Translations under genes and position numbers: made by a program
Source of the DNA: an uncultured Bdellovibrionales bacterium
GTDB lineage: Bacteria; Patescibacteriota; Minisyncoccia; Moranbacterales; UBA1568
Assembly: GCA_964384235.1 (NCBI GenBank)
Contig: CAYLJX010000005.1
Coordinates: forward strand, 5,289 to 69,288
DNA length: 64,000 bases
Direction of reading: 5' to 3'
The notes under the pieces: model-generated
Database searches by the model: none
Told to the model about the DNA's origin: nothing
What the model saw: only the letters and a program-made list of their open reading frames with translations
In this document: positions 21,485-63,080 of the stretch, piece after piece
How positions within the stretch are numbered: the first letter of the stretch is position 1
How the letters are laid out: each line of letters opens with the position of its first letter

Positions 21485-22897
21485 TTACTTGTGCTTATTC
21501 GTATCGATAAGAAATCTTCCCAGATTTTTCCGTCCGATGATGACAGGGTATTCCAGCTGTGATCGGTCGATGATCGATACGCGAGCGGGGATTTCCGCGC
21601 CGTCGAGAACAAAGGATATCTTCACCTTCGGTCGCATCGTGAAGCCGTTGGAGGAATAGGTGAATGCGATGCCGTCCAGGTCCGGGTGGGCATTCTTGTA
21701 TTTCGCATCGTACTGGTCCGAAACCTGTTTCAGTTCCTCGCGGTTTCCGGATTCCGGCTTCGGAATGGTCTCGAAAAACTCGAGCACCGAAGAAAATCCC
21801 AACTGTTTGGCGAGTTCGGTGTCGATGGAGGTGGAGTCGGCGCCGGTGTCGATCTTGGCCTCCACCTCGATCTCCTTGCCGTCCTTGCCGATGAGCTTCA
21901 CTTTCTCCACGGTGCCGATGACGCGCTTGCCGGAGAGCTCCTCGATTTCCTCCTCGATCTCGCCGCCGAAGATGTTTTTCGCGACGCGCATGCCGTGCTC
22001 GACGGATTTGATCTTGAGACCTTGGACGCGCGTGAGGCGTTCCTTGAGACCGGAGAGGTTGGCGAGCTGGATGGAGAGTCCCGGGCGGGCGTTGAGCTCG
22101 AGGATGACCGGGCCCTGTTCGCGGTCGATGGCGATGTCGGCGCCGAGGAAACCGAGGCCGGAGATCTCCTGTGCCTGGATGGCCATGCGGAGGATGTCTT
22201 TCCAGTAGGGGATCTTGATACCGGAGAGGACCAGGCGGGTGCCGGGGACGTATTCGATCAAGTGTCCCTTGCCGAGGATGGCGGTCGTCGTGGTGCCGGA
22301 GGCGAGGTCGATGCCGACCCCGACCGCACCCTGCTGAAGGTTCGCCTTGCCGTCGGAGGCACGCGTCGGGAGGCGAAGCATCGCCATGACGGGCACGCGG
22401 TTGAAGACGATGACGCGGATGTCGGGGATACCCTTGAAGGTGTAGGGCTTGAAGAGTTTCAGGAGCTTGAGACGTTCCTCGAAAAAGGCGACGTCGGGAG
22501 TGTTGGCGAGGGAGAAGGAACCGTCGAGGATGTTTCGGATATGGTTCTTGAGGTCCTCGATGGTGATGACGGTGCCGTCGGCCTTGATCCATCCATCGAC
22601 ACCGTTCTTCTTACGCGCGTAGACGACGAGGATGCCTTCACCGCCGAAGCCGCGATTGGGCTTGAGGGCGAAGCTGTTGGGTAGGGTCGACCAGTCGAAA
22701 CGTTCCAGTTCCTCATGGGTGCGGATCTTGCCGATCAGTCCGGAGACGCCCAAACCGTTTTTCTTGAGGATGCGTTTGCAGAGGAGTTTGTTGTCGGCGA
22801 TCTCCCGGCCATGCGCGCGGTTGTAGGAGCGGATGTAGGAGAGGTTCCGCGCGTTCATGCCGAGGAGGCCACGGCTTTTGGTGAAGAGTTCGAGCAT
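21485..22897 (-). CDS. Fusion: alpha-L-glutamate-ligase-related ATP-grasp (N-terminal) plus clan AA DTGA retropepsin-like protease domain (C-terminal)
   Basis: N-terminal LGMNARNLSYIRSYN...FALKPNRGFGGEGI...GADIAIDREQGPVILELNARPGLSIQ is ATP-grasp-like. The C-terminal ~150 aa carry the DTGA active-site signature (EAKIDTGADSTSID) and a ...VIIGRKNLGRFLIDT tail typical of DUF785/RimK-associated aspartic proteases. Confidence 0.65.
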   Translation of the reverse strand: MLELFTKSRGLLGMNARNLSYIRSYNRAHGREIADNKLLCKRILKKNGLGVSGLIGKIRTHEELERFDWSTLPNSFALKPNRGFGGEGILVVYARKKNGVDGWIKADGTVITIEDLKNHIRNILDGSFSLANTPDVAFFEERLKLLKLFKPYTFKGIPDIRVIVFNRVPVMAMLRLPTRASDGKANLQQGAVGVGIDLASGTTTTAILGKGHLIEYVPGTRLVLSGIKIPYWKDILRMAIQAQEISGLGFLGADIAIDREQGPVILELNARPGLSIQLANLSGLKERLTRVQGLKIKSVEHGMRVAKNIFGGEIEEEIEELSGKRVIGTVEKVKLIGKDGKEIEVEAKIDTGADSTSIDTELAKQLGFSSVLEFFETIPKPESGNREELKQVSDQYDAKYKNAHPDLDGIAFTYSSNGFTMRPKVKISFVLDGAEIPARVSIIDRSQLEYPVIIGRKNLGRFLIDTNKHK

Positions 22898-22961
22898 AGT
22901 CTAAAAAGACAAAAGGCAAGAGGCAGTAGGCAGGAGGGAGAAAAAGAATTCAACGTGCCTT

Positions 22962-23618
22962 TTAAAAGTTTCGCAAGATTTTTCGGAAGCGAAAATATTC
23001 TGTCAGTCGCAATCCCGTCCACTTGCCGAGGCCGAGGTTCACGAGGAACGTGAAGAGTACGGCCCACGGATACTGCAGGAAGAAGGTGGTGAGCGTTTCG
23101 GAACTCACGAGGAAGTAGCCGACGACAGAGATGATGAGCGTTTCGACGGCGAGGAGAAAGGCGACGCGCGTGCCCTTTTCGATCTGGGTGGCGACGAATT
23201 TTTCCGTGAGCGTGATCATGATGAGGAGGGGGAAGATGGAAACGGACGCCAGGCCGGTGCGCTGGAACATGCCGCCGAAGACGAGGATGCCGAGGATGGC
23301 GAGCGAGACGATGGAGAGAGTGATGGCGACGCGCGGGAGGTAGAGGAGGCGGAAGCGCCGCAGGGCGTAGCGCGAGAGCATTCCCACCAGGATGATGGCG
23401 ACAAAGATGGCGATGCCGTACTTCACGCCGTTCGGATCAAAGGCGAGCAGGGCGAACGTGATGATGGACGGCGTATAGATGCCGAAAGCCTTGATGCCGA
23501 CCACCTGGCGGAAGAAGGCGACGAGCGTGGCGATGACGGGCAGCATCAACAGGAGCTGTACCGTCTGGAGCGGCACGCCCTGTTCGACGAAGAAGAGGAT
23601 GAAAGGATGGTAGTCCAT
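22962..23618 (-). CDS. Polytopic (~6-7 TM) membrane protein, first gene of the ATP-grasp operon (7TM module of ATP-grasp/transglutaminase-type systems?)
   Basis: 218 aa from ATG 23618 (MDYHPF); almost entirely hydrophobic helices; position upstream of the ATP-grasp genes. Confidence 0.45.
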   Translation of the reverse strand: MDYHPFILFFVEQGVPLQTVQLLLMLPVIATLVAFFRQVVGIKAFGIYTPSIITFALLAFDPNGVKYGIAIFVAIILVGMLSRYALRRFRLLYLPRVAITLSIVSLAILGILVFGGMFQRTGLASVSIFPLLIMITLTEKFVATQIEKGTRVAFLLAVETLIISVVGYFLVSSETLTTFFLQYPWAVLFTFLVNLGLGKWTGLRLTEYFRFRKILRNF

Positions 23619-23735
23619 ATGCTTAAAAACTCGAAATACGAAACCCGAAATACTAAACAAATCCTAAAATCGAAGCGATAAATCCCAAATACTCGTTTAA
23701 AATTTCTGTTTTGAAATTTAGATTTTGTTTCGGAT

Positions 23736-26615: not shown

Positions 26616-27650
26616 CTACAACAGTTTGTCCTGGTGGTTTTCCGGGGGAGTGATGTCGAGATGCCTGTAGCCGTGCTCGGTGACGACACGGCCGCGCGGG
26701 GTGCGGGCGATGAAGCCCAATTGGATGAGATACGGTTCGTAGACATCCTCGATGGTCTGGATCTCCTCGCCCGTGACGGCGGCGATGGCCTGGATGCCGG
26801 CCGGGCCGCCCCTGAACTTCTCGATGACGGTCTTGAGGATATGCCGGTCGGTCGGTTCGAGTCCGAGAAAGTCGATCTCGTAGAGGGCGAGGGCTTCCTG
26901 CGCGAGATCCTCGGTGATGGTCGGTTCGTCCTTGGTCTCCACGAAGTCGCGCACGCGCTTGAGGATCCGGTTGGCGACGCGCGGGGTCTGGCGGCTGGAG
27001 TGGGCGATGGCCCGAGCGCCGCCTTCGTCGATGCCGATGTTTAAGATGCCGGCGGAGCGGCGGACGATCCGCTCGATCTCTTCCGGCGTGTAGAACTCGA
27101 GGCGGTGCGTGGAGCCGAAGCGGTTGCGCAGGGGATTGGTGAGCGAGCCGAGGCGGGTGGTGGCACCGATGAGCGTGAAGCGCGGCAGATCGAGCTGGAT
27201 GGTGCGGGCGGCCGGTCCTTTGCCGATGATGATGTCGAGCTTGTAGTCCTCCATGGCCGGGTAGAGGACCTCCTCGATGGACTTGTTGAGGCGGTGGATC
27301 TCGTCGATGAAGAGCACGTCGCCGTCCTCGAGGTTGGTGAGGATGGAGCCCAAGTCGCCGACACGCTCGATGGCGGGGCCGGAGGTGACTTTGATACCGA
27401 CACCCATCTCCTTGGCGATGATGTTGGCAAGTGTCGTCTTGCCCAAGCCTGCCGGACCGTAGAGGAGGACGTGGTCGATGGATTCTTTGCGCTTCTTGGC
27501 GGCCTGGATGAAGATGTCGAGGTTGCGCTTGATCTTTTCCTGGCCGACGTAGTCCTCGAAACGCTTTGGGCGGAGCGTATTGTCGAGGTTCTGGTCCTCG
27601 ATCTTTTCTTCCCGGCTTTCTTCAGGTGTGATGGCAGCGGTATTTAACAT
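26616..27650 (-). CDS. ruvB: Holliday junction branch migration helicase RuvB
   Basis: AAA+ Walker [20 protein letters not shown], sensor motifs and a winged-helix C-terminus. Confidence 0.93.
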
Positions 27651-27962
27651 ATTTTTGGCTTATATATGGGGTGAAATACGGACTCGTGTCACTTGATTGT
27701 ACCACTGCTTGACACAAAAACAAAGATGTGCTATTCTCAGGGGTCGTTTCGAAAAGCTCGAAACCGGTTTTTTGCAAGGGTGGCTTCATCTGTAGACAAT
27801 TGGGGATCACTATCTTTTGTCCTCAATCATGGGAACAACTGTCCAGACACGGGTAGGGTGGTTTCGGCTGCGCTATTCCTCGACACTGTTCCTTTCCTCC
27901 GACTCCTAATGTTAGAGGGTTGTCTACAGGTGAAATTACCTTTGGTGGCAGGAGTTTCTGTG

Positions 27963-28120: not shown

Positions 28121-28152
28121 GAAAAAAGAAGCTCTGCGGAGCTTCTTTTTTG
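28121..28152. terminator. Bidirectional terminator downstream of the tandem PilB gene
   Basis: aaaaaaGAAGCTCTGCGGAGCTTCtttttt; preceded by a direct repeat GTTAGTCGCATAGAAAA x2. Confidence 0.6.
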
Positions 28153-28178: not shown

Positions 28179-31100
28179 CTATTCTTCCGTGACGCGTTCG
28201 ATCTCTTCGAGAGTGGTCTTGCCTTCGAGGACGGAGAGAATGCCGTCCTGGGCGAGGGTGATCATGCCGTTCTCGATCGCCTTGCTTTCGATCTCGTGGG
28301 CGAGCGCTCCTTGGGTGATCAGGGCGGCGATGTCTTTGTCGAGAGAGAGGACCTCGCTTATGATGACCTGCCCGTTGAAGCCGCTCCCGTTGCATTCGGG
28401 GCAGCCCTTGGCACGGAAGAGGGAAACAGTGTCAGATACCTGTTTTTTGAGTGCGGGTGGCAGCGTGGCGATGATTTTTTCCATGAGCGCGCGTTCTTCC
28501 GGGGTGGTGTCGGATTTTTCTTTGCAGTGGTCGCAGAGGCGGCGCACCAGGCGCTGCGCGATGAAGGCGTTCCCGGCGTTCGCGAGATCGTCGCTGCTGA
28601 TACCCATGCCGAGAAGGCGGGGAATGGTGCCTGAGGCGTTGTTGGCATGGAGCGTCGAGAGGACGAGGTGGCCGGTGACGGCGGCCTGGACGGCGATTCC
28701 CGCGGTCTCCTGGTCGCGGATCTCACCGATCATGAGGATGTCAGGGTTCTGCCGGAGAAGCGAACGGAGTGCGGTGGCGAAGGTGTATCCGTCCGCCTCG
28801 TTGATCTGGGTCTGGAGCAGTCCCGGGATCTGATACTCGATCGGGTCCTCGACGGTGATGATCTTGATTTCCGGCGTGTTGATGTGGGAGAGGAGGCTGT
28901 AGAGCGTGGTAGTCTTGCCGGAGCCGGTCGGACCGGCGTTGAGGATGATGCCATAGGGCTTCTTCACGGCTTCCAGGATGCGGTCGAGGTTTTCCTGGCG
29001 GATGTCGAGGGACTCGAGCTTGAGGGAAGTGGCGGACTTGTTGAGGAGACGCATCACGACCGTCTCGCCGAAGCCGCCGAGGATGAGCGAGAGACGGACA
29101 TCGATCTTGGTGTCGGTGACGGAGCCGTAGGGTTCCTGGAGGGTGAGAGAGAAGCGTCCGTCCGTGACCCCGGCGCGTTCGCCTGATTTCAATCCGGCGA
29201 AGATCTTGATCTGGCCGAGGATGGCCGGGTATTCGTCCAGAGGAAAGGAGAGGGCGTTCTTGAGAATGCCGTCGATACGGTAGCGGACCAGGACGTTCTC
29301 TTCGGTCGGTTCGATGTGGATGTCGCCGGCCCGCAGGAGGAGCGCCGCCGCAAAGACCGTCTTGAGGAAGGTCTGCTGGTCGATCGTCCCGACGTAGGCG
29401 GCGAGGTCGTCGAGCGAGGCGAGGTGGGTTTCGGTTTCCGCGAGGATCGCCGGCGAGAGGAAGGAGTGCGACGAGAGGGCGCTCGGCATGAGTTCCGCGT
29501 AGACTTTCTTGAGCATGTCGCCCTGATCCGCCACGCGCCAGACTTCCTCGAAGGTGGTGATGCCCTCGATGGCCTTGAGGATACCGTCCTGGGTCATGGT
29601 GATCATACCGTCCTCGAGGGCGACCTTGGTGATCTCGTCTTCGGTGCCGAGATCGTTGATGATCTTGATGAGGGTCGGGCTCATGACGAAGACTTCGAAG
29701 ATGCCGATCCGGCCACGATAGCCGGTGAAGTGACACTCCGCGCAGCCGGCCGCTTTCCAGAGCTTGTCGATGGTCTTGGGGACGGTGATCTTGGCCTTGG
29801 GGGAAACGATGGAGATGAGCTGCTTGAGGGAGGCGACGGTCTCTTCGGCCGGGGCGTAGGACTCTCTGCAGGACGGGCAGAGCTTGCGGACGAGGCGCTG
29901 CGCGATGAGGGCGTTGACGGAAGAAGTGATGAGGTTCGGTTTGACGCCGAGCTCGAGGAGGCGCGGGATGGAGGCCGGGGCGCTGTTGGCGTGGAGCGTC
30001 GAGAGGACGAGGTGGCCGGTGAGGGCAGCGTTGATGGCGATGTCGGCGGTCTCGTCGTCTCGGATCTCGCCGACGAGGATGACATCCGGGTCCTGGCGGA
30101 CGACGGCGCGCAGGGCTTGGGCGAAGGTGTAGCTCTTGCTTTTGGAGACCTCCGTCTGGAGGATGCCGGGAAGGTTGTATTCGATCGGATCCTCGACGGT
30201 GATGATCTTGACGCCGGGCTGGTTGATGGTGTTGAGCAGACTGTAGAGTGTGGTGGTCTTGCCGGAGCCGGTCGGACCGGTGTTGAGGATCATTCCGTGA
30301 GGCTTCTCGATCTGCTTGCGCACTTCCTCATAGGCGAGGCCGCGCAGTCCGAGGTCTTCTACTTCGACGATGATGTCGTCGCTACTGAGGAGACGCATGT
30401 TGAGGCTTTCACCGTGCTTGCCGGGGATGCTGTTGACACGGATGTCGATACGCTTTTCATCCATGGTGACGAAGAAGTGTCCGTCCTGGGCCCGGTCCCG
30501 CACGTTGAGGCGCATCTTGCCGAGCATCTTGATGCGGGAGAGCGCGAGGTGATAGATATCCGGGGAAAATTTCCCCACGTCTTGCAGGACGCCGTCGATA
30601 CGGTAGCGGAGGCGCGCATCATCTTCTTCCGGTTCGATATGGATGTCGCTCGCCTTCATCTTCTTGGCGCCGGCCAGGATGACTTCCAGGATGTTCGAGA
30701 CGGAAGTCTGGTGCAGGTTGTCCTTGAGCTGGAGGAGGGCGCCGAAGTTCTCCTCGAATTTCTCGAGATCGTTTCCCGAGAGGTTGACCCGTATCAGGTC
30801 CAGGCTTTCCAAGAGCGAGGTCCGGGTGTAGGCGGCGAGGGCTTTCTCGAAGGACGGTCGGGAAACGACGTGGAGAGTGGTATCCCAGCCATGCCCGGAG
30901 GCGAGTGTCTGAACGTACTCGAGCGTTGCCTGGTTTCCAGGATCGACGATGGCGATGTGGGTCGTCTCGCCGGTCTTCTGGAAGAGGGCGACCTCATGTT
31001 TCTTTGCGTCTTCCTTGGGAATGAGCGCGAGGTCCTCGGGATCGAGCGGGAAGAGGTGGAGATCGATATAGGAGAGACCGTTTTTGGCGGCGAGTGTCGC

Positions 31101-31208
31101 GGCCTCCTCTTCGATCGAGGCTTCGTGCATCTTCTTGAGGAGCGCGTCGGCCCTGGCTTGCTTTTCGGGATCGCCGATTGAAGGGATGGAGGAGATGACT
31201 TTGGGCAT
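28179..31208 (-). CDS. Tandem-fused double GspE/PilB-family secretion ATPase (N1-N2-CTD-N2-CTD in one polypeptide)
   Basis: 1009-aa uninterrupted ORF. An N-terminal T2SSE_N domain is followed by two complete ATPase modules, each with Walker A GPTGSGKTTTLYSLL, an Asp box, Walker B DPDVILVGEIRD / NPDILMIGEIRD, a His box TGHLVLSTLHAN and a tetracysteine motif (CPSC...CAEC and CDHC...CPEC). Confidence 0.85.
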   Translation of the reverse strand: MPKVISSIPSIGDPEKQARADALLKKMHEASIEEEAATLAAKNGLSYIDLHLFPLDPEDLALIPKEDAKKHEVALFQKTGETTHIAIVDPGNQATLEYVQTLASGHGWDTTLHVVSRPSFEKALAAYTRTSLLESLDLIRVNLSGNDLEKFEENFGALLQLKDNLHQTSVSNILEVILAGAKKMKASDIHIEPEEDDARLRYRIDGVLQDVGKFSPDIYHLALSRIKMLGKMRLNVRDRAQDGHFFVTMDEKRIDIRVNSIPGKHGESLNMRLLSSDDIIVEVEDLGLRGLAYEEVRKQIEKPHGMILNTGPTGSGKTTTLYSLLNTINQPGVKIITVEDPIEYNLPGILQTEVSKSKSYTFAQALRAVVRQDPDVILVGEIRDDETADIAINAALTGHLVLSTLHANSAPASIPRLLELGVKPNLITSSVNALIAQRLVRKLCPSCRESYAPAEETVASLKQLISIVSPKAKITVPKTIDKLWKAAGCAECHFTGYRGRIGIFEVFVMSPTLIKIINDLGTEDEITKVALEDGMITMTQDGILKAIEGITTFEEVWRVADQGDMLKKVYAELMPSALSSHSFLSPAILAETETHLASLDDLAAYVGTIDQQTFLKTVFAAALLLRAGDIHIEPTEENVLVRYRIDGILKNALSFPLDEYPAILGQIKIFAGLKSGERAGVTDGRFSLTLQEPYGSVTDTKIDVRLSLILGGFGETVVMRLLNKSATSLKLESLDIRQENLDRILEAVKKPYGIILNAGPTGSGKTTTLYSLLSHINTPEIKIITVEDPIEYQIPGLLQTQINEADGYTFATALRSLLRQNPDILMIGEIRDQETAGIAVQAAVTGHLVLSTLHANNASGTIPRLLGMGISSDDLANAGNAFIAQRLVRRLCDHCKEKSDTTPEERALMEKIIATLPPALKKQVSDTVSLFRAKGCPECNGSGFNGQVIISEVLSLDKDIAALITQGALAHEIESKAIENGMITLAQDGILSVLEGKTTLEEIERVTEE

Positions 31209-31249: not shown

Positions 31250-31300
31250 AAAGGGGTTTTTTTGAGTATGAAAAACCCCTCTCTTTCGAGAGGGGTTGAA
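31250..31300 (-). terminator. Terminator hairpins after the DHH-family gene
   Basis: GGGGTTTTTTTGAGTATGAAAAACCCC and CCCCTCTCtttcgAGAGGGG; on the minus strand the latter is followed by a U-run. Confidence 0.55.
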
Positions 31301-31320: not shown

Positions 31321-32472
31321 TTATGACGGCAAGGTCTTGAATATCTGCTGCCACTTCTCTATCGTCTTGAGTTCGGCTTCCTCGAGGCTCCTCGCGTCGA
31401 CGGTGAAGGAGAAGAGATCGCCCTGAAGTTCGCCTTCCCGGAAACGCTCGGCGAGCGCCGTGAGATTCTCCTGGGAAACGGCCTTGACGATGCCGCGCAC
31501 CATCGAGACAGATTCCGGATAGAGGAGGAGGAAGAACGTGGCGGAAGAATAGTTGCTCTTGATGCGTTCCAGGACGGCCGGCAGGTCCTCGACGCGCGAA
31601 CGGCTCTGCACGAGGTCCTCGAGGGAGACGGGCGCCCAGATGAGCTTGAGCTCCTCGTTCCATTTGACTCCCGCCATGACGCGGCCCCAGAGTTTGAGGA
31701 GATTGAGGGGCTGCGTCTTGTAGAGCGAACGGACGATTTTCTGCTGGTCGGCGCCTTTGTCCATGAGCTGGGAGGCGAGCTGGAGCGCTTTGGGAGTAGT
31801 ATTCTTTTTCTGGAAGCTCTCCGTGGCGGAGATGATGCCGGTGAGGAGACATTCCGCTATTCTTTCGTCAATGGCGTCGGGAGCGGCACGTTCGATGAGC
31901 TCCGTCGCGATCTCGGAAACGGACGAAGCGGTGATGTCGACGAAGTTTACCTGACCGAAGAGTTCGTTCTGCGAATGGTTGTCGATGTTGATGAGCGGGA
32001 TCTCGTAGAAGATGTCGGCGTTGTTCTCGTAGATCTTCCCGACGGATTCCTTGTCCGGGGCACCGACGATGAGACACAGGTCGAACTTGAACTGCGCGGG
32101 GATGAAGGAGAAATCGCGCGGGTCGATGGTGTTGTGCTCGGGCGTGAGGTAGATGCGGAGCTCCTGACCGACCGTCTCGGTGCGCACGTCGATGATCTTG
32201 TTGCGTTCGGTGTTGAAGGAAAGCACGAAGTCGCGCGCTCCCTCGATGGCCGAGAGGAGTCCTTCCGGTTCCGGGAGGAACGCGAGCTCAGTCTTGTCGC
32301 GGAGCACGTTGTCGCCGGCCACCGTCGCGTCCTTGCCATGCTTCTTGAGAAAGAAGGCGAGGGCGTAGGCGGAAGCGACGGCATCGCGGGTGGGATAGGT
32401 CGGGAGGAGAATGAGGGGACGGGAGGATTTTTTGAAGAGTTCCTGGAATTGTTGGACAGAGGTCAAGGACAT
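31321..32472 (-). CDS. DHH/DHHA1 family phosphoesterase-like protein (NrnA-like) with degenerate catalytic motifs
   Basis: DHH-family architecture with a C-terminal DHHA1-like GGGH-less region. Motif III reads IDNH instead of DHH and motif I reads PTRDAVAS instead of PDGDAxGS. Start at internal ATG 32472. Confidence 0.55.
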   Translation of the reverse strand: MSLTSVQQFQELFKKSSRPLILLPTYPTRDAVASAYALAFFLKKHGKDATVAGDNVLRDKTELAFLPEPEGLLSAIEGARDFVLSFNTERNKIIDVRTETVGQELRIYLTPEHNTIDPRDFSFIPAQFKFDLCLIVGAPDKESVGKIYENNADIFYEIPLINIDNHSQNELFGQVNFVDITASSVSEIATELIERAAPDAIDERIAECLLTGIISATESFQKKNTTPKALQLASQLMDKGADQQKIVRSLYKTQPLNLLKLWGRVMAGVKWNEELKLIWAPVSLEDLVQSRSRVEDLPAVLERIKSNYSSATFFLLLYPESVSMVRGIVKAVSQENLTALAERFREGELQGDLFSFTVDARSLEEAELKTIEKWQQIFKTLPS

Positions 32473-32729
32473 ACGATCGGAAAGGCAAAAGTCAAAAGAC
32501 AAAAGTCAAAACGGGCTGAAACTGGGGAGCGGGTAAGAAATCAAGATACCAGAGGAAAACGTTCGTGTCAAACGAAGACGCATTTCACAAGAAGTAATAA
32601 TATAGAGTACTATGAGAATGTTTTTTATTTGTCATTCCGAGCGATTCCGCGTTGCGGAAGAGTCGAGGAATCTATTTAAGCACAAAAAAGATCCCTCGGC
32701 TTCGCTCGGGATGACAGTTTTATAAGCAT

Positions 32730-53109: not shown

Positions 53110-54651
53110 ATGAATCTGCGCGTCAAAGCGTTCCTAGCCATCGTCTTCGTGCTCGTCGTCCTGTTCTCGGCCTTATATGCCATCCTGTCGCGGGTTCTGA
53201 TTGCCGATTTTCTGGATATCGAGCAACGTGAGGCGATCGATCATGCCGCTCGCGTGACGGATGCCTTGGAAAACAAGACCGAGGAACTTTCTATCAAGCT
53301 GTCGGACTGGGGGCAATGGGATGACACGTATGCGTTCGTCCAGGATCGGAATCAGGAGTATATTGATTCCAACCTTCAGGATGCGGCGTTGCAGATCCTT
53401 CGCATCAATTTTGTTATCATTGCTGATAATAATGATCAGATCGTTTTTGAGAAACACGTCGACTCGGAAGGAAAAGCTCAACCGGTTCCCGAGAGTCTCA
53501 AGGGGTATTTTTCTCCAAGAAGCGCGCTCTTGAGCCATGAGAATGTCGAGCATGCCCATCGAGGTATCCTCGTGCTGCCGGAGGGAGCGATCATCCTCGC
53601 GTCCCGGACGATCACGTCGAGCGACGGGACAGCTGAACCGCTTGGAACGATCTCGTTCGCCTATTTCATCGATGAGGATGTCCTCGAACATCTCTCACAG
53701 CTCACGCATCTCTCGGTAGAGTTTGTTCCGTATGCCGGAGCCAGCCTCTCGGCCGATTATCAGAAGGCTTTTCATGCCGTTTCGCAGGAACAGCGTTCTT
53801 TTCTCCGTCTCGATGACGAACATTCCCTTTCAGCGTTCGCGCTCATGGACGATATCTTCGGTGAGCCGGCACTTTTGGTAAAAACGACGATGAGCAGGGA
53901 GGTCTACGAGAAAGGAAAAGGAACCGTCACGATCTTCTTCTGGGTGATGGCCGGGGTAGGAGCCACAGTCGTTTTCGTGGTGTTCCTCCTGTTCGAGTTT
54001 CTGGTGCTCAAGAAGATCTTCCGTCTCAACTGGGAAGTAGGCAAGATCCGTGAGAGCGGAGACCTGCGTACGCGTCTTTCCTATTATGGAAAAGACGAGT
54101 TTTCCAAGCTTTCCGACGCGATCAATCAGATGCTCTCGTCCCTTCAGCGGCTCGAGGTCAAGAAGCGCGAGAGCGAGGAGCGCTTCCAGGCCATCGCCGA
54201 TTCGGTACCGGTCATGATCTGGATAGCCGACCGCAAAGGGAACTTTACCTATGTCAACAAGACTTGGCTCGATTTCAGTGGTCGGACGATAGAGAGTGAG
54301 CTCGGCAGCGGCTGGAAGGAGCGCGTCCATCCGGATGACCTGACGGAAGTGGAGAAGATCACGGCGGAAACCGGAAAAAATCCCGTGCCGTTCCACGCCG
54401 AGACGCGTCAGCGCCACAAGGACGGAACCTATCGCTGGCTCTTTGTCACCGGTATCCCACAGTTCGATCGCCGTGGCGTTTTCAAAGGATATATCGGTTC
54501 CAGTGTCGACATCACCGAGCGCAAGGAGAATGAGGAAAAGCAGCAGGAGTACATCGGGGAGATCGAAAACATGAACAAGATCATGGTCGCCCGGGAGCTC
54601 AAGATGATCGAGCTCAAGGAGAAGATCCAGAGGATGCAGCATGACGGATAA
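53110..54651 (+). CDS. Membrane sensor protein: CHASE4-like periplasmic domain, HAMP, PAS; no transmitter domain
   Basis: TM1, a ~250-aa periplasmic region with WGQWDDTYAFVQDRNQEYIDSNL (CHASE4-like), TM2, a HAMP-like linker, then a PAS domain (GNFTYVNKTWLDFSGR...HKDGTYRWL). Ends by an 11-nt overlap with the next gene. Confidence 0.6.
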   Translation: MNLRVKAFLAIVFVLVVLFSALYAILSRVLIADFLDIEQREAIDHAARVTDALENKTEELSIKLSDWGQWDDTYAFVQDRNQEYIDSNLQDAALQILRINFVIIADNNDQIVFEKHVDSEGKAQPVPESLKGYFSPRSALLSHENVEHAHRGILVLPEGAIILASRTITSSDGTAEPLGTISFAYFIDEDVLEHLSQLTHLSVEFVPYAGASLSADYQKAFHAVSQEQRSFLRLDDEHSLSAFALMDDIFGEPALLVKTTMSREVYEKGKGTVTIFFWVMAGVGATVVFVVFLLFEFLVLKKIFRLNWEVGKIRESGDLRTRLSYYGKDEFSKLSDAINQMLSSLQRLEVKKRESEERFQAIADSVPVMIWIADRKGNFTYVNKTWLDFSGRTIESELGSGWKERVHPDDLTEVEKITAETGKNPVPFHAETRQRHKDGTYRWLFVTGIPQFDRRGVFKGYIGSSVDITERKENEEKQQEYIGEIENMNKIMVARELKMIELKEKIQRMQHDG

Positions 54652-56407
54652 GGAAATGGACAAAAAGAACGCCCCGGACGGGGACAATCTGGGGGGATTT
54701 CTCACGCCTGAACACGAGGAGCTCTTTGAGGGTCTTCAGAATTTCGAGGAAGGGTACATCGAGAATCTTCGTGAACGCAACCGGTTTCTGGAAGACACCC
54801 GTCGGGCGATTTTCAACATTCTCGAGGACGTGGCCGAGTCAGAGGAGGAGCTTCGCAAAAAGACGGATGAACTGGAAAAGTTCCGCAAAGCCGTCGATAC
54901 GAGCTTCGATCATACGATCATCACGGATCCCGACGGCATCATCCTGTATGCCAACCATGCCGCCGAGATCCTCACGGGATACACGAAAGAAGAGATGCTC
55001 GGCAAGCGTCCGTCACTCTGGGGGCACCAGATGCCAAAAAAATTCTACGAAATTCTCTGGAGAACCATCAAGGAAGAGAAGCAGAGCTATGTGGGCGAGC
55101 TCACGAACCGTCGCAAGGACGGGACGAAGTTCCTGGCAAGCATCCGTATCTCCCCTATCCTGGACAAGCAGGGGGAGATACGGCAGTACGTCGGCGTGCT
55201 TCGGGACATCACCGAGGAACGCAAGATCCAGCTCAAGATCATCCGTCATTCCACGGAACTGGAGAAGGCCAACGTCCGCATCGAGGAGGAAAAGGAGCGC
55301 GCCGAAGGCATCCTGCGCTTCCTCAAGTCCATCGGTGAGGGCGTCTTCGCGACTGACGCGGACGACCGTATCATCTTTATGAACGAGACGGCCGAAGTCT
55401 TCTCCGGGAAGAAGTTCGCCCCGGACGAGAGGCCGGCGTACAAGGAGATGTTCTCGTTCGAGCGCGGCGATCACCTGGAGAAAAAGTCCTTCTCCCCGGT
55501 GGCGCTCGCCTATTCCAAGGGCGCTACGATCGCTTTTCCGGAAAAATCGTATCTTTTGCAAGGGGAGAAACGTTTGCCGGTATCCGGTACCTCGTCGCTC
55601 ATTATGGACGGCAGCGGAAAAGTCATCGGCACCATCACAGTCTTCCAGGACGTGACCAAGGAGCGCGGACTGGAGAAGATGAAGGATAGCTTCCTCTCGG
55701 TCGCGGCGCATCAGTTGCGCACCCCGCTCGGGAGCATGCGCTGGAGCATGGAGATGCTTCTTTCCGGCGACCTTGGTAAGCTGCCCAAGGAGGCCAAAGA
55801 GGCCGTCGCGATGCTCTACGAGAACAGCCAGCGCATGGCGACCCTGGTGGACGACCTTCTTGATGTTTCCCGTATCGACCAGGGACGCTCCAAGGAGGCG
55901 ATCGAGGAAACGGATCTCCTGAATCTCCTGAAGCAGGTGATGGAGACGCTTGCCGGTGAAGCCGAAAAGCGCGTTGTCACTGTCGTGTCTCATTTTCCCA
56001 AGACCAGGAGTCTCCCGGTTTCCGTCGCACCCAAGCATTTTTATGAGGCCATGGAAAACCTCCTGTCCAACGCCATTAAGTACAACCGTCCTGATGGGTC
56101 GGTGACGCTCTCCGTCGAGGAAAAGGAAGGTAAACTTCTCATCCGGGTCGCGGATACCGGTATCGGCATCCCCAAGGATGATCAGGAGAAGGTGTTCGGG
56201 AAATTCTTCCGTGCCGGGAACGCCGTCCTCAAGGAGACGGAGGGTAGCGGTCTCGGTCTCTCCGTGGTAAAATCGTACGTGGAGGAGTGCAAAGGCCGCA
56301 TCTGGTTCGAAAGTGAGGAAAATATCGGCACGATCTTCTTCGTCGAACTTCCGTATCTCAAGAAAAAAACGGCGCGCCCACGAAAGAAACTGGAAAAGGG
56401 CGCTTAA
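54641..56407 (+). CDS. Cytoplasmic multi-PAS sensor histidine kinase
   Basis: PAS repeats; HisKA H-box SVAAHQLRTPLGSM; HATPase_c N, G1 and G2 boxes (NAIKYNRPDG, DTGIGIPKD, GSGLGLSVVK). Confidence 0.85.
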   Translation: MTDKEMDKKNAPDGDNLGGFLTPEHEELFEGLQNFEEGYIENLRERNRFLEDTRRAIFNILEDVAESEEELRKKTDELEKFRKAVDTSFDHTIITDPDGIILYANHAAEILTGYTKEEMLGKRPSLWGHQMPKKFYEILWRTIKEEKQSYVGELTNRRKDGTKFLASIRISPILDKQGEIRQYVGVLRDITEERKIQLKIIRHSTELEKANVRIEEEKERAEGILRFLKSIGEGVFATDADDRIIFMNETAEVFSGKKFAPDERPAYKEMFSFERGDHLEKKSFSPVALAYSKGATIAFPEKSYLLQGEKRLPVSGTSSLIMDGSGKVIGTITVFQDVTKERGLEKMKDSFLSVAAHQLRTPLGSMRWSMEMLLSGDLGKLPKEAKEAVAMLYENSQRMATLVDDLLDVSRIDQGRSKEAIEETDLLNLLKQVMETLAGEAEKRVVTVVSHFPKTRSLPVSVAPKHFYEAMENLLSNAIKYNRPDGSVTLSVEEKEGKLLIRVADTGIGIPKDDQEKVFGKFFRAGNAVLKETEGSGLGLSVVKSYVEECKGRIWFESEENIGTIFFVELPYLKKKTARPRKKLEKGA

Positions 56408-56426
56408 TCCGAGATAATCCCCGCAT

Positions 56427-56801
56427 ATGGCTGACACTAAGTATGTTTTGGTCGTGGAAGACGATCCGTTTTACGGCAATATCTACAAGACCAAGCTTTC
56501 CAAGGAAAAGATCGTCGCGGAAATCGCTCACAACGGCAACGAGGCGCTCAAGATCGCCCGTGAAAAGAAGCCGACGCTGGTCCTTATGGACCTCATCATG
56601 CCGGAGAAGGACGGCTTTGAGGCGCTCGCGGAATTCAAGGCGGACCCCGCCCTCAAGGATGTCAAGGTGATCATCCTCTCCAATCTCAGTCAGGAAGAGG
56701 ACATCCAGCGGGTCCTGGATCTCGGGGCGGCGGAATACCTGATCAAGGCGAACGTGCCGATCCAGCAAGTGATCATGAAGATCAAGGAGAATCTCGCGTA
56801 A
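56427..56801 (+). CDS. Single-domain response regulator (CheY/PilH-like receiver)
   Basis: VLVVEDDPFYG...LVLMDLIMPEKDG...KVIILSNL has the REC-domain D/D/T/K residues. Confidence 0.85.
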   Translation: MADTKYVLVVEDDPFYGNIYKTKLSKEKIVAEIAHNGNEALKIAREKKPTLVLMDLIMPEKDGFEALAEFKADPALKDVKVIILSNLSQEEDIQRVLDLGAAEYLIKANVPIQQVIMKIKENLA

Positions 56802-58635: not shown

Positions 58636-59694
58636 TTGAGTATGTTTTCTTCGGTCAGTCATTTGGAAAAAATGCTTTTCACCCGGGAGTTCTCGGTGCT
58701 CTTGAAGAGCGGTGTGCCGCTTCGCGAAGCGCTTGTTTCGCTTGAGGGGAAGGCACGGAGAGGAAGCATGCGCAAAGTCTTGCAGGATATCGAAAGCCAT
58801 ATCGAGAACGGCCAACCGCTCTCCCAGGCTCTTTCGCGCTTCCCCAAAGTCTTCGATCCGCTCTACGTGAACCTGGTGAGGATAGGTGAGGCGTCGGGGA
58901 CGCTTCCGGAGAACCTGGAGTTTCTCTCTCATGAACTCGACCAAGCCTATCAGCTTCGCAAGAAGATCCAAGGAATCCTTCTTTATCCGTCGATTGTCTT
59001 CACGCTGGCGCTTGGGTTAGGGGCGGCCATCAGTGTTTTCATCCTGCCGCGTCTCATCCGGCTTTTCGATTCTTTCGATGTCGCGTTGCCGCTCTCGACA
59101 CGTATCCTTCTCGGTGTCGCTTCTTTCATGGAAGCGAACGGAGTGCTTTTTTTCGCGGTTCTTTTTTTGTTCCTTATCGTATGGCGCGTGGTCGTGTCGC
59201 TTCGGACGGTCCGACCGTACTGGCACCGGTTTCTTCTTTCCCTTCCCGGCCTTGGAACATTCTTTCAGGACGTCGCCGCGGCGCGTTTCTGCCGTGATAT
59301 GGGCGTGATGCTCCGAAGCGGCCTGCCTCTCCTGGAGGCGCTTGAGACGGAGGAGCAGGTGATGGAGAACCGGGCCCTGGCCCGTCTTATCAAAGAGCTC
59401 TCCCGCGCGGTGGCGTCGGGACAGTCGCTCGCCGAAGAATTGGAACAGGAACGCTACGCGCTCATTCCGTCGCTTGCGGCGAAGATGATCTCTGCCGGCG
59501 AAAAAACCGGTCGTCTGGGAGAAACGTTTCTCTATCTGGAGAACTTCTTCGAGACGGAAGTGGATCGTCGCGTCAAGAACATGACCGTGCTGTTCGAACC
59601 GATGCTCCTTGTCGCGATCGGCCTCCTCGTCGCGTTTCTCGCGCTTGCTATTCTCACACCCATCTACTCTTTGACAGGCTCCGTGCATCGTTAA
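58636..59694 (+). CDS. pilC: Type IV pilus platform protein PilC (GspF family)
   Basis: Two GspF repeats with TM helices; LLYPSIVF and GEKTGRLGE motifs. Confidence 0.85.
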   Translation: MSMFSSVSHLEKMLFTREFSVLLKSGVPLREALVSLEGKARRGSMRKVLQDIESHIENGQPLSQALSRFPKVFDPLYVNLVRIGEASGTLPENLEFLSHELDQAYQLRKKIQGILLYPSIVFTLALGLGAAISVFILPRLIRLFDSFDVALPLSTRILLGVASFMEANGVLFFAVLFLFLIVWRVVVSLRTVRPYWHRFLLSLPGLGTFFQDVAAARFCRDMGVMLRSGLPLLEALETEEQVMENRALARLIKELSRAVASGQSLAEELEQERYALIPSLAAKMISAGEKTGRLGETFLYLENFFETEVDRRVKNMTVLFEPMLLVAIGLLVAFLALAILTPIYSLTGSVHR

Positions 59695-61675: not shown

Positions 61676-62515
61676 ATGTTTGAGAAAAAACGTTACGTAT
61701 TGTTCGTCGGAAAACGCTTCATCGAACCGGGGATGGTGACGCTTGGGAAAACCGCTTCGTTCGAGGGGGGTGAGGCTCTTTCCTATACGAGTGAAACGCT
61801 TGCCGATGCGCTGCGGAACATCCGGGAGAGAGCGACAGGAAAAGTCCGCGTGGTCCTGAGCGAAGAGTTGGTCTATGTGACGGAAATTTCCTTTCCCGCC
61901 GGTACCTCCGTCACTCGCGAATCGATCCGGGAGAAAGCGGAAGAATTCATTCCTGATGACTTGCATGATTCGCAGTGGGACTTTGAAACGCTTCACTATA
62001 CGGAGAAACGGAAGGAATCGGAAACCTTGGTGCAGGTCGCGATGATAGAGCGTTCGTTTGCCGAAGCGTTCAAGGCTGCGCTTGCGATCGCGCCCCTTCC
62101 TCTCGAAAGCGTCGTGCCGGAATCCTACGCCCTCGCGTCCTTTATGGCTGATCGGGGAGGCGTCTCGGTCATCGTGGAACGGGATCGCGAGTCGACGGTG
62201 CTGGTCGCGACGGAACAGGGATCGGTCATCTCGACGTATGTGCAGGATTCCGTGACGACAGATGGCCTCTCGCTCTTTCTTGGCTTCGTGAAGGGGAAAG
62301 GAAAAGAGGTCAAGCGGATCGTTTTCTCCCACTTTGCCGAAGAAGAAGTGGCGCCCTTCAGAATCTTTGAAGAGCAGGGGTATGAGGTTCTCGCGGAGAA
62401 TTACAATCCGCTCATCGGAGCGGCAGCGCAGGACATCTCCGGCCGTGACGAATCGGTACTCAACATCGATATCTTCCAGACAAACAAAAAGCCCTGGTGG
62501 AGGTTCCGGTCATAA
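61676..62515 (+). CDS. Hypothetical soluble protein in the pilus cluster (possibly PilM-like assembly protein)
   Basis: 279 aa with no TM helix; sits between the minor pilins and pilA where pilM often lies; weak similarity only. Confidence 0.3.
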   Translation: MFEKKRYVLFVGKRFIEPGMVTLGKTASFEGGEALSYTSETLADALRNIRERATGKVRVVLSEELVYVTEISFPAGTSVTRESIREKAEEFIPDDLHDSQWDFETLHYTEKRKESETLVQVAMIERSFAEAFKAALAIAPLPLESVVPESYALASFMADRGGVSVIVERDRESTVLVATEQGSVISTYVQDSVTTDGLSLFLGFVKGKGKEVKRIVFSHFAEEEVAPFRIFEEQGYEVLAENYNPLIGAAAQDISGRDESVLNIDIFQTNKKPWWRFRS

Positions 62516-62618: not shown

Positions 62619-63080
62619 ATGCAAAAACACAAAGGCTTCACCCTCATCGAAATCCTCCTCGTCATCGGCATCATCGCTGTGTTGGCGGCGGTCGTCGTCG
62701 TCGCTCTCGACCCGGCCAAACGCTTTGCCGACGCCCAGAACTCACGCCGCCTCTCCGATATCCAGAGCGTCCTCTCGGCCGTGCAGCAGTACATCGTCGA
62801 CAACAAGGGCTCGCTCCCGAGCGGTCTGGAAACGACCGAGAAGCAGATCGGCACCGGCGGGAGCGGCTGCGAAGTCTACGGCGAACACTGCAACGTCAGC
62901 GTAGGAAGCTGTGTGGACCTTTCGAGCGACCTTGCCAAGTATCTCAAAGCCATGCCGTACGACCCCGTGACCGGTGCGGCCGAAGCGACCCATTACTCCA
63001 TCCAGACCGATGCTAACAATATCGTGACTGTGACCGCCTGCGATTCGACGGATGCCACCATCTCGTCCGTTTCCCGTTAA
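62619..63080 (+). CDS. pilA: Type IVa major pilin (PilA-like)
   Basis: MQKHKG|FTLIEILLVIGIIAVLAAVVVVAL is the canonical class III signal; C-terminal Cys pair. A TATAAT at 62521-62526 and two 5'UTR hairpins precede it. Confidence 0.85.
   Translation: MQKHKGFTLIEILLVIGIIAVLAAVVVVALDPAKRFADAQNSRRLSDIQSVLSAVQQYIVDNKGSLPSGLETTEKQIGTGGSGCEVYGEHCNVSVGSCVDLSSDLAKYLKAMPYDPVTGAAEATHYSIQTDANNIVTVTACDSTDATISSVSR

Follow-up and report, generated by a model that had tools for sequence, protein, structure and literature searches.

In a 64,000-nucleotide stretch of contig CAYLJX010000005.1 (assembly GCA_964384235.1, recorded as an uncultured Bdellovibrionales bacterium), hereafter the window, one gene encodes an ATPase of 1009 residues in which two complete PilB/GspE-type motor modules follow each other in a single polypeptide. 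Based on its sequence, its relatives and the known structures of the class, we consider it rather probable that this protein is an anciently fixed PilB/GspE-class variant, produced by internal duplication of the motor and working as a three-chain ring on a PilC-type platform. The norm for PilB and GspE is one motor module per polypeptide and a homohexameric assembly, and the annotation under which the relatives of this protein are deposited, 'GspE/PulE family protein', conceals the tandem architecture.

Two complete motor modules in one reading frame

The open reading frame (ORF) runs along the minus strand from an ATG, without interruption, through 1009 codons to a stop (the positions of all features are collected in Table 1). 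An earlier note on the window, made from the sequence alone, had described it as one uninterrupted ORF with a T2SSE_N domain followed by two full ATPase modules; translation, Pfam and hmmsearch, the last of which returned two complete motor modules, bear this out, and the coordinates and length given there stand, to which only the strand, left unstated, had to be added. Pfam placed one MshEN/T2SSE_N domain (PF05157) at residues 44-130 (E = 6.8e-11, above the cut-off) and two T2SSE (PF00437) stretches that together reach E = 2e-226; the best one spans positions 6-370 of the 370 in the profile. The order of domains is N1D-[N2D-CTD]-linker-[N2D-CTD], with a single N1D for the two motor modules, named here M1 and M2. 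By eye, no RLG of the cyclic di-GMP-binding motif of MshE-type ATPases was found in the N-terminal helix (residues 14-42), where no formal motif search was made; the ATPases of that type carry in their N-terminal helices tandem 24-residue motifs of the form RLGxx(L/V/I)(L/V/I)xxG....

A regular-expression scan, numbered on the 1009-residue protein, located each motif of the class twice, as had been noted before for Walker A, Asp box, Walker B, His box and tetracysteine. The Walker A GPTGSGKT begins at residues 311 and 759 (K317, K765), the Asp box IITVEDPIE at 335 and 783 (E339/E343; E787/E791), the Walker B with its catalytic glutamate, (V/I)GEIRD, at 376 and 824 (E381, E829), and the His box TGHLVLSTLH at 397 and 845 (H399/H406; H847/H854), while the Zn tetracysteine is made of CxxC pairs at 444/489 in M1 (C444, C447, C489, C492) and at 892/936 in M2 (C892, C895, C936, C939). 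Residues were mapped by alignment of M1 to the PilB of Geobacter metallireducens (PilB_Gm, 5TSG) and from there to M2 by alignment of the two modules, the roles being taken from the published work on that enzyme (PMC5424180). The arginine fingers R271 and R286 of PilB_Gm correspond to R257 and R272 in the N2D of M1 and to R705 and R720 in that of M2, the Asp-box glutamate E357 to E343 and E791, and the His-box residues H413 and H420 to H399 and H406 in M1 and to H847 and H854 in M2. M1 and M2 are 45% identical over 397 residues (E = 1e-123).

Class, fold and constraint of the modules

Against the sequences of the PDB, M1 together with the N-terminus matched the PilB of Myxococcus xanthus and of Geobacter at E values of 1e-100 to 1e-102 and PilF and GspE at 1e-87 to 1e-93, M2 matched the PilB/PilF/GspE set at 1e-84 to 1e-89, and PilT, PilU and BfpD matched either module only at about 1e-21 to 1e-32. 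AlphaFold2 (AF2) predicted the full chain with a mean predicted local distance difference test (pLDDT) of 82 and a predicted template modelling score (pTM) of 0.54. Each module was superposed by Foldseek on PilB/PilF chains with a target-normalised TM-score (TMt) of 0.90-0.93 and a root mean square deviation of 2.5-3.0 Å, the TMt for PilT being 0.7-0.8; among the PDB structures no solved chain spanned more than one module (query-normalised TM-score, TMq, <= 0.36). Both the NCBIfam model for PilB (TIGR02538, score 865, cut-off 676) and that for GspE (TIGR02533, score 888, cut-off 630) are passed, and because each score sums the two modules neither equivalog can be assigned. A tetracysteine Zn motif separates the PilB/GspE clade from PilT and PilU, and the marks of a PilT/PilU protein, namely no N1D, no Zn tetracysteine and PilT as closest relative, were not found in this ATPase. 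By these comparisons with PilB, PilT and GspE, to which the earlier note had left the clade of each half, both modules are of the PilB/GspE class, not PilT.

Constraint was assessed on an alignment of 157 doubles and 94 single-module relatives. The Walker A lysine, Asp-box glutamate, catalytic glutamate, His box, arginine fingers and Zn cysteines are 96-100% kept in both modules of the doubles, and the four arginine-finger positions (two per module) are 100% conserved. Likewise, the columns that are at least 93% conserved in the single-module proteins are all kept in M1 and all but six of them in M2, and none of the six is a catalytic, arginine-finger or Zn residue. Judged by this conservation, neither half is decaying and both are under strong constraint across the 157 homologues; both look catalytically competent, as the earlier note had also held in setting aside a decayed duplicate.

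The two modules nevertheless differ in some respects. M2 evolves faster than M1, with an orthologous identity of 60-70% against 64-75% and a lower conservation of its C-terminal subdomain (0.559 against 0.666); the mean column conservation is 0.657 in N2D2 and 0.676 in N2D1. Strict module-specific substitutions in 54 diverse doubles number only three, D373/N821, L378/M826 and N393/Q841 (M1/M2), all beside Walker B. In addition, the M1 of the Moranbacteria type has H244 at the position of R257 of PilB_Gm, where M2 keeps an arginine (R685) and where the M1 of deeper-branching doubles also retains one. In PilB_Gm this arginine forms a salt bridge with the Asp-box glutamate only in the open, ATP-analogue-bound interface (PMC5424180).

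Reality and distribution of the fusion

A word-indexed search through 5.8 billion proteins gave, among the matches listed, the exact protein (P0001), on an 80-kb NCBI contig, and at least 119 further clusters drawn from NCBI, JGI, ENA and Logan assemblies. These are full-length, of about 1004-1022 residues and 56-66% identity, with the exception of one triple of 1460 residues at 50%, and those that bear a name, from Moranbacteria/Moraniibacteriota, Minisyncoccota or Patescibacteria, are called 'GspE/PulE family protein'. An exhaustive search of 50%-identity representatives added some 13 of 978-1018 residues at 39-58% identity, with about a dozen distant doubles at 39-47%; proteins of Paceibacterota are among them, as is KKU82539.1 ('General secretory pathway protein E') of the Parcubacteria group bacterium GW2011_GWA2_47_8. 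In addition, a scan of GTDB, with one genome for each species, by an alignment of the module junction built from the eight closest doubles yielded at least 80 loci; a match spanning the junction was present in all 80 of the loci listed, and in about 70 of these a stop-to-stop frame of at least 1000 codons passes through the junction. Shorter frames were seen in four loci, three of them frameshifted inside a module and one merely lacking the first 70 residues or so, and in none of these four was there a clean gene boundary between the modules.

The species with a frameshift inside a module are L030 (CP064994.1, a Moraniibacteriota genome labelled complete), L028 and L048, and the frameshifts could be sequencing errors or pseudogenes. 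Carriers of the double are mostly Moranbacteria, together with other Parcubacteria, and the gene occupies one syntenic locus in them (tsaE, NrnA-like DHH gene, ATPase, ruvB). A number of metagenome-assembled genomes deposited as third-party annotation under the name 'uncultured Bdellovibrionales/Pseudobdellovibrionaceae bacterium' (L005, L009, L012, L018, L023 and about 15 more) have a Moranbacteria-type locus in full synteny, and the taxonomy of these records is probably wrong.

An artefact in which two neighbouring pilB genes were joined through an overlooked stop, a frameshift or a chimeric assembly might be suspected from the metagenome-type contig on which the window lies and from the frameshifts in three of the 80 related loci listed. 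We consider it extremely improbable, given that the same continuous frame recurs in the at least 119 independent clusters and in about 70 species representatives, that the observed frameshifts fall inside modules and none at the junction, that the doubles share a linker of conserved sequence and length, and that an identity of only 45% between the halves excludes the collapse or mis-assembly of a repeat. The fusion is confirmed as genuine, beyond chance and assembly error. The earlier note had named as possible refutations an assembly error and a pair of separate genes in the relatives, and had suggested looking for the same fusion in related genomes; the relatives carry the same single frame, in about 70 of the 80 GTDB species loci listed. 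By the evidence of these matches the fusion is not peculiar to this genome, and marks an old and widespread family of Parcubacteria.

Origin by internal duplication

Single, double and triple forms occur at the same locus. In another lineage of the Candidate Phyla Radiation (CPR), a single-module, M1-like PilB of 565 residues (P0139; L090, 1400-3097) occupies the slot between the DHH gene and ruvB, and it probably represents the ancestral state of the locus. At the other extreme, the triple P0002 (L004, 8001-12383, JGI metagenome 3300022698) lies in the same tsaE/DHH locus and consists of 1460 residues with one N1D and three N2D-CTD modules, all of them complete; identity among its modules is 46-59%, and the first is M1-like, the last M2-like and the middle one intermediate. 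A neighbour-joining tree built from 179 modules contains one group of M1s and one of M2s, lying next to each other.

The linker between the modules, of about 50 residues, can be aligned nearly without gaps over 18 diverse doubles, which are 27-35% identical across the aligned junction segment and in which Y570 and L578 are near-invariant. AF2 predicts it as a helix, a low-confidence hinge at residues 575-580, a strand and further helices, largely ordered apart from the hinge, and the same hinge appears in a prediction of the CTD1-linker-N2D2 piece, considered as a possible rigid covalent packing unit (pTM 0.64); the linker between N1D and N2D1 is predicted to be disordered. We considered whether the inter-module linker might be a copy of the latter and rejected it: an hhalign probability of 97% between the two linkers came from N2D residues that had been included, and fell to 12% once the start of N2D was excluded. 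Taken together, the single and triple forms at the same locus, the grouping of M1 and M2 in the tree and the conserved linker indicate that the double arose from one old internal duplication of N2D and CTD, in situ, in an orphan PilB paralogue, and not from a merger of neighbouring genes.

In two proteins the halves are more alike than the roughly 45% found elsewhere, namely P0129 (L088, 3226-6213), with 75% identity, and P0125 (L089, 8001-10985), with 57%. Independent fusions were rejected for both, which lie in the orthologous tsaE/ruvB locus; intragenic homogenisation, by gene conversion between the modules, or a re-duplication would account for them, and homogenisation is more likely than independent fusion. 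A truly independent tandem outside the CPR is P0142 (L087, 8001-11144, GCA_964384625.1), a non-CPR protein of 1047 residues in which two PilC-type cytoplasmic T2SSF domains precede two T2SSE modules. Its first ATPase module has lost the Walker A lysine (GSGTTT), and its gene lies downstream of an extracytoplasmic function (ECF) sigma/anti-sigma pair, with sulfatase and MoxR/BatA genes and no pilins nearby.

Assembly of the motor

Based on the published structures of the class, we hypothesize that three chains would form one six-module ring, (M1-M2)x3, carrying three N1Ds, in which both types of site would hydrolyse ATP, to give six active sites per ring. Such a ring would drive pilin polymerisation through a PilC-type platform; the platform has itself been modelled as a trimer of internally duplicated subunits, each contacting two ATPase N2Ds, and a stoichiometry of three chains to three would match it. 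Adjacent protomers of a PilB ring pack with the N2D of one on the CTD of the next, and the ring acts like six packing units on a string (PMC5424180). A two-module chain would close it with three copies and a three-module chain with two. The modules per chain observed in the family are one, two and three, all divisors of six. In the model of PulE6:PulF3 each platform subunit binds two ATPase N2Ds (PMC10790770; the model is also cited in a 2024 PilB review), and the two platform domains and two motor modules of P0142 fit a 2:2 unit of a ring of this type. From these observations we infer that a pseudo-hexamer of three chains is the best-supported assembly.

The alternating protomer conformations on which the earlier note had built its trimer of dimers describe a C3 state; PilB crystallises in a C2 state denoted CCOCCO (PMC5424180). 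In a CCOCCO ring of three double chains, each pair of opposite protomers would comprise an M1 and an M2, so that a rotary cycle would need both modules to be competent, in agreement with their conservation.

The first alternative to the three-chain ring is a stacked double ring of six chains, with an M1 hexamer coaxial with an M2 hexamer and only one of the two touching the platform. Tandem RecA/AAA+ modules most often do stack, as in KaiC, in p97, NSF and ClpB and in EccC of the type VII secretion system, a linker of about 50 residues with a hinge would permit it, and AF2 gave no confident in-plane contact between the modules. We nevertheless consider it unlikely, for N2D2 is as conserved as N2D1 although a lower ring would not face PilC, the series of one, two and three modules per chain fits the divisors of six, P0142 pairs two cytoplasmic platform domains with two ATPase modules, and in PilT-like ATPases it is the N2D(n):CTD(n+1) packing unit that holds the ring together (PMC5424180). 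A different possibility keeps a single ring and makes the pair asymmetric, with one module mainly regulatory or structural, as alpha is to beta in F1 or PilU to PilT, or with extension and retraction split between the two. The faster evolution of M2, above all in its C-terminal subdomain, the fixed differences near Walker B, H244 in the Moranbacteria-type M1 and the first module of P0142, devoid of its Walker A lysine, would all agree with this. On the other hand, catalytic residues, both arginine fingers and Zn sites are kept in both modules of the 157 sequences, neither module is PilT-like, and the homogenisation of the P0129 modules to 75% argues against obligatory specialisation, and we give this reading even less credence than the stacked rings.

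Several observations weigh against an ancient duplication that works as a three-chain ring on PilC. The triple is known from one metagenome contig only, and the deep nodes of the module tree have bootstrap values of 0-44. AF2 left the relative placement of M1 and M2 unfixed, in the full chain (pTM 0.54) as in the sub-construct (0.64). No platform, pilin or PilM gene adjoins the tandem gene in the window or in any locus examined, and the 54 diverse doubles show no strict module-specific (type-II) site in N2D, the three that exist all lying in the CTD core, which gives no sign of distinct partners. Finally, M1 and M2 are perhaps kinetically unequal, because H244 replaces the equivalent of R257 of PilB_Gm in the Moranbacteria-type M1.

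The three-chain ring could be taken further, and we propose only tentatively a natural covalent-dimer motor of three chains matched 1:1 to a trimeric, duplicated PilC, in which distinct M1 and M2 site types would occupy fixed alternate positions. If so, the motor might follow a three-fold alternate-site logic or 120-degree steps, in contrast to the six equivalent positions of current rotary models, and would form a mechanistic class of its own among type IV filament motors as well as a ready tool for position-specific mutagenesis of the ring.

The pilus cluster and the machine served

The window also contains a canonical type IV pilus cluster (PilB, PilC, four minor pilins, a PilM-like protein and the major pilin), which lies 25 kb from the tandem gene, in accordance with the earlier placement of the gene away from the main pilus locus. 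The PilB of this cluster is 45% identical to M1 and 44% to M2. Its PilC is the only platform protein among the ORFs of the window that were examined, and is a candidate partner of the tandem ATPase, which by family membership is presumed to be tied to a filament. In type IVa pili, PilB, PilT and PilU share one platform, and a role as a second motor on the same PilC is possible, as is one in a separate process, for instance DNA uptake, or with another filament. That the gene lies away from the pilus operon points to a second use of the motor, so far unrecognised. Directly upstream of the pilB-pilC-pilin cluster are a CHASE4-HAMP-PAS protein, a PAS histidine kinase and a stand-alone receiver (53110-56801, plus strand), an arrangement that suggests two-component control of the canonical pilus operon.

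Relation to known systems

The tandem ATPase resembles PilB (G. metallireducens 5TSG, 5TSH and 6OLJ; M. xanthus 3JC8) in the order N1D-N2D-CTD, the catalytic motifs, the arginine fingers and the Zn site, with E values of 1e-89 to 1e-102 and a TMt of about 0.9 per module, and differs from it in having two motor modules with one N1D, a structured linker of about 50 residues, a gene remote from PilC and pilins, and H244 in M1. To GspE/EpsE/PulE (1P9R, 4KSR/4KSS, 4PHT) it is similar in fold and Zn motif, at E values of about 1e-84 to 1e-91; the tandem architecture sets it apart, and the cut-off of TIGR02533 is passed solely through the summing of two modules. A classical type II secretion system is unlikely, because CPR bacteria have no outer membrane and no secretin (PMC6744442). 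PilF of Thermus thermophilus (5IT5, 5OIU, 6F8L) shares the PilB-class core, as one of the best fold matches (TMt 0.93), and is also a PilB with multiplied domains, but there the N-terminal GSPII domains are multiplied beside one ATPase core, whereas the tandem protein duplicates the core itself.

Outside the motor family, PilC/GspF (PulF) offers a parallel in that each chain is a tandem duplicate and three chains yield a six-fold pseudo-symmetry (PMC10790770); as a membrane platform of another fold and role, it can serve as an analogy. Linked dimers of Msp1, an ATPase of another family, have been engineered and form functional pseudohexameric trimers of dimers that allow position-specific mutation (PMC12793716), but these are artificial. 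Natural two-module chains are found in other ATPase families, in KaiC, p97 and EccC, with the modules stacked and not in one ring.

No description of a tandem PilB/GspE/T2SSE form was found in the full-text literature, including a survey of the TFF superfamily (type IV filaments), a study of CPR protein families and the 2024 PilB review, and no such entry was found in the PDB, in agreement with the earlier note, to whose author no fused GspE dimer was known. Double sequences have been public since 2015 as a generic 'GspE' (KKU82539.1), and the novelty is the recognition of the architecture in sequences already deposited. It bears on two open questions of the field, the coordination of ATP among six protomers (C2, C3 or C6) and the coupling to PilC, taken either as a dimer placed in sub-pores or as a trimer that has six cytoplasmic domains (PMC5424180, PMC10790770, PMC11656802). 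In a natural linked dimer, or in the one linked trimer, M1 and M2 could be mutated separately, which elsewhere, as for Msp1 (PMC12793716), needed artificial linking. Moreover, the gene belongs to the conserved core of a large uncultivated lineage for whose way of life type IV pili are believed to be needed (PMC6744442), and it can mark a conserved paralogue of the pilus motor that has gone unrecognised in Parcubacteria.

Genomic neighbourhood

The gene lies between ruvB and an NrnA-like DHH gene, as the earlier note had placed it, within a conserved block that reads tsaE (on the opposite strand), NrnA-like DHH gene, ATPase, a spacer of 300-600 bp, ruvB, a bPH gene, yebC and ruvC. The DHH gene accompanies the ATPase in synteny at about 70 of 84 loci, from Moranbacteria to the Parcubacteria bacterium GW2011_GWA2_47_8, and is absent at L086 and L088. 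By eye, the catalytic motifs of the DHH protein look degenerate, with PTRDAVAS for PDGDAIGS and IDNHS for DHH. A functional link between the DHH gene and the ATPase is not claimed, considering the housekeeping nature of the block, the hairpin between the two genes and the loci from which the DHH gene is absent; likewise, the ruvB, ruvC and polA surroundings are a housekeeping block from which no function of the ATPase is read. Terminator-like hairpins flank the ATPase gene on both sides, which suggests that it is transcribed on its own.

Table 1. Features of the window discussed in the text, in order of position (aa, residues of the 1009-residue protein)
Feature	Position	Strand	Evidence or remark
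ruvB	26616-27650	minus	
Promoter-like TTGACA-17-TAnnnT (TATTCT in the window), conserved, upstream of the RNA	27709-27737	plus	sequence
Conserved structured RNA, about 157 nt	27779-27936	plus	just 3' of the ATPase gene, convergent
Bidirectional terminator-like hairpin	28122-28151	both	terminator scan; directly 3' of the ATPase stop, shared with the convergent non-coding RNA
CDS, tandem double PilB/GspE-type ATPase	28179-31208	minus	ORF list, translation, Pfam, exact database match P0001
Motor module 2 (M2: N2D2 + CTD2), aa 614-1009; signature RQNPD (N821)	28182-29369	minus	motifs, module alignment
Inter-module linker, family-specific, aa 563-613	29370-29522	minus	alignment of doubles; AF2
Motor module 1 (M1: N2D1 + CTD1), aa 168-562	29523-30707	minus	motifs, conservation, 5TSG mapping, Foldseek
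N1D-N2D linker, flexible, aa 131-167	30708-30818	minus	AF2 pLDDT <50 over aa 130-167
N-terminal helix + N1D (T2SSE_N/MshEN-type), aa 1-130	30819-31208	minus	PF05157; AF2 pLDDT 75-90 over aa 20-130
Terminator-like hairpin between DHH gene and ATPase	31276-31293	minus	terminator scan, sequence
NrnA-like DHH/DHHA1 gene	31321-32502	minus	Pfam DHH E = 2.7e-8; PDB NrnA/DHH matches 1e-15 to 1e-17
Canonical PilB, single-module, 564 aa	56826-58520	plus	Pfam T2SSE/MshEN
PilC platform	58636-59694	plus	Pfam 2x T2SSF
PilM-like	61676-62515		type IV pilus cluster
Major pilin	62619-63080		type IV pilus cluster

A structured RNA in the spacer

The spacer between the ATPase gene and ruvB is 75-88% identical to that of relatives at the DNA level, against 45-65% for the flanking proteins. 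RNAalifold folds the RNA it contains with 41 pairs, 26 of which show compensatory changes, and from its numerous conserved G-U pairs it is assigned to the plus strand of the window. A further helix, found by eye, pairs GGGAAC with GUUCCU and covaries with GGCGUC/GACGCU and GGUUGC/GCAACU, and the loop CUAUCUUUU is invariant. With a covariance model of this RNA, R1, it was located at more than 70 loci directly 3' of the ATPase gene, whether double or triple, and a weak match (22 bits) lies in the 3' spacer of the single-module gene of L090. Neither at the gathering thresholds nor at E <= 5 did the spacer RNA match Rfam 15, and it was identified as neither a tRNA nor a tmRNA. The hairpin next to the ATPase stop would serve as a terminator-like element common to the RNA and the ATPase gene.

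Elsewhere in the window, at 21485-23660 on the minus strand, a protein of the ATP-grasp type (ATPgrasp_ST) whose C-terminal domain is Zn-protease-like is encoded beside a 7TM_transglut membrane protein, and this pair, along with further RimK-like ATP-grasp genes, is kept beside ruvC in L001 and L003.

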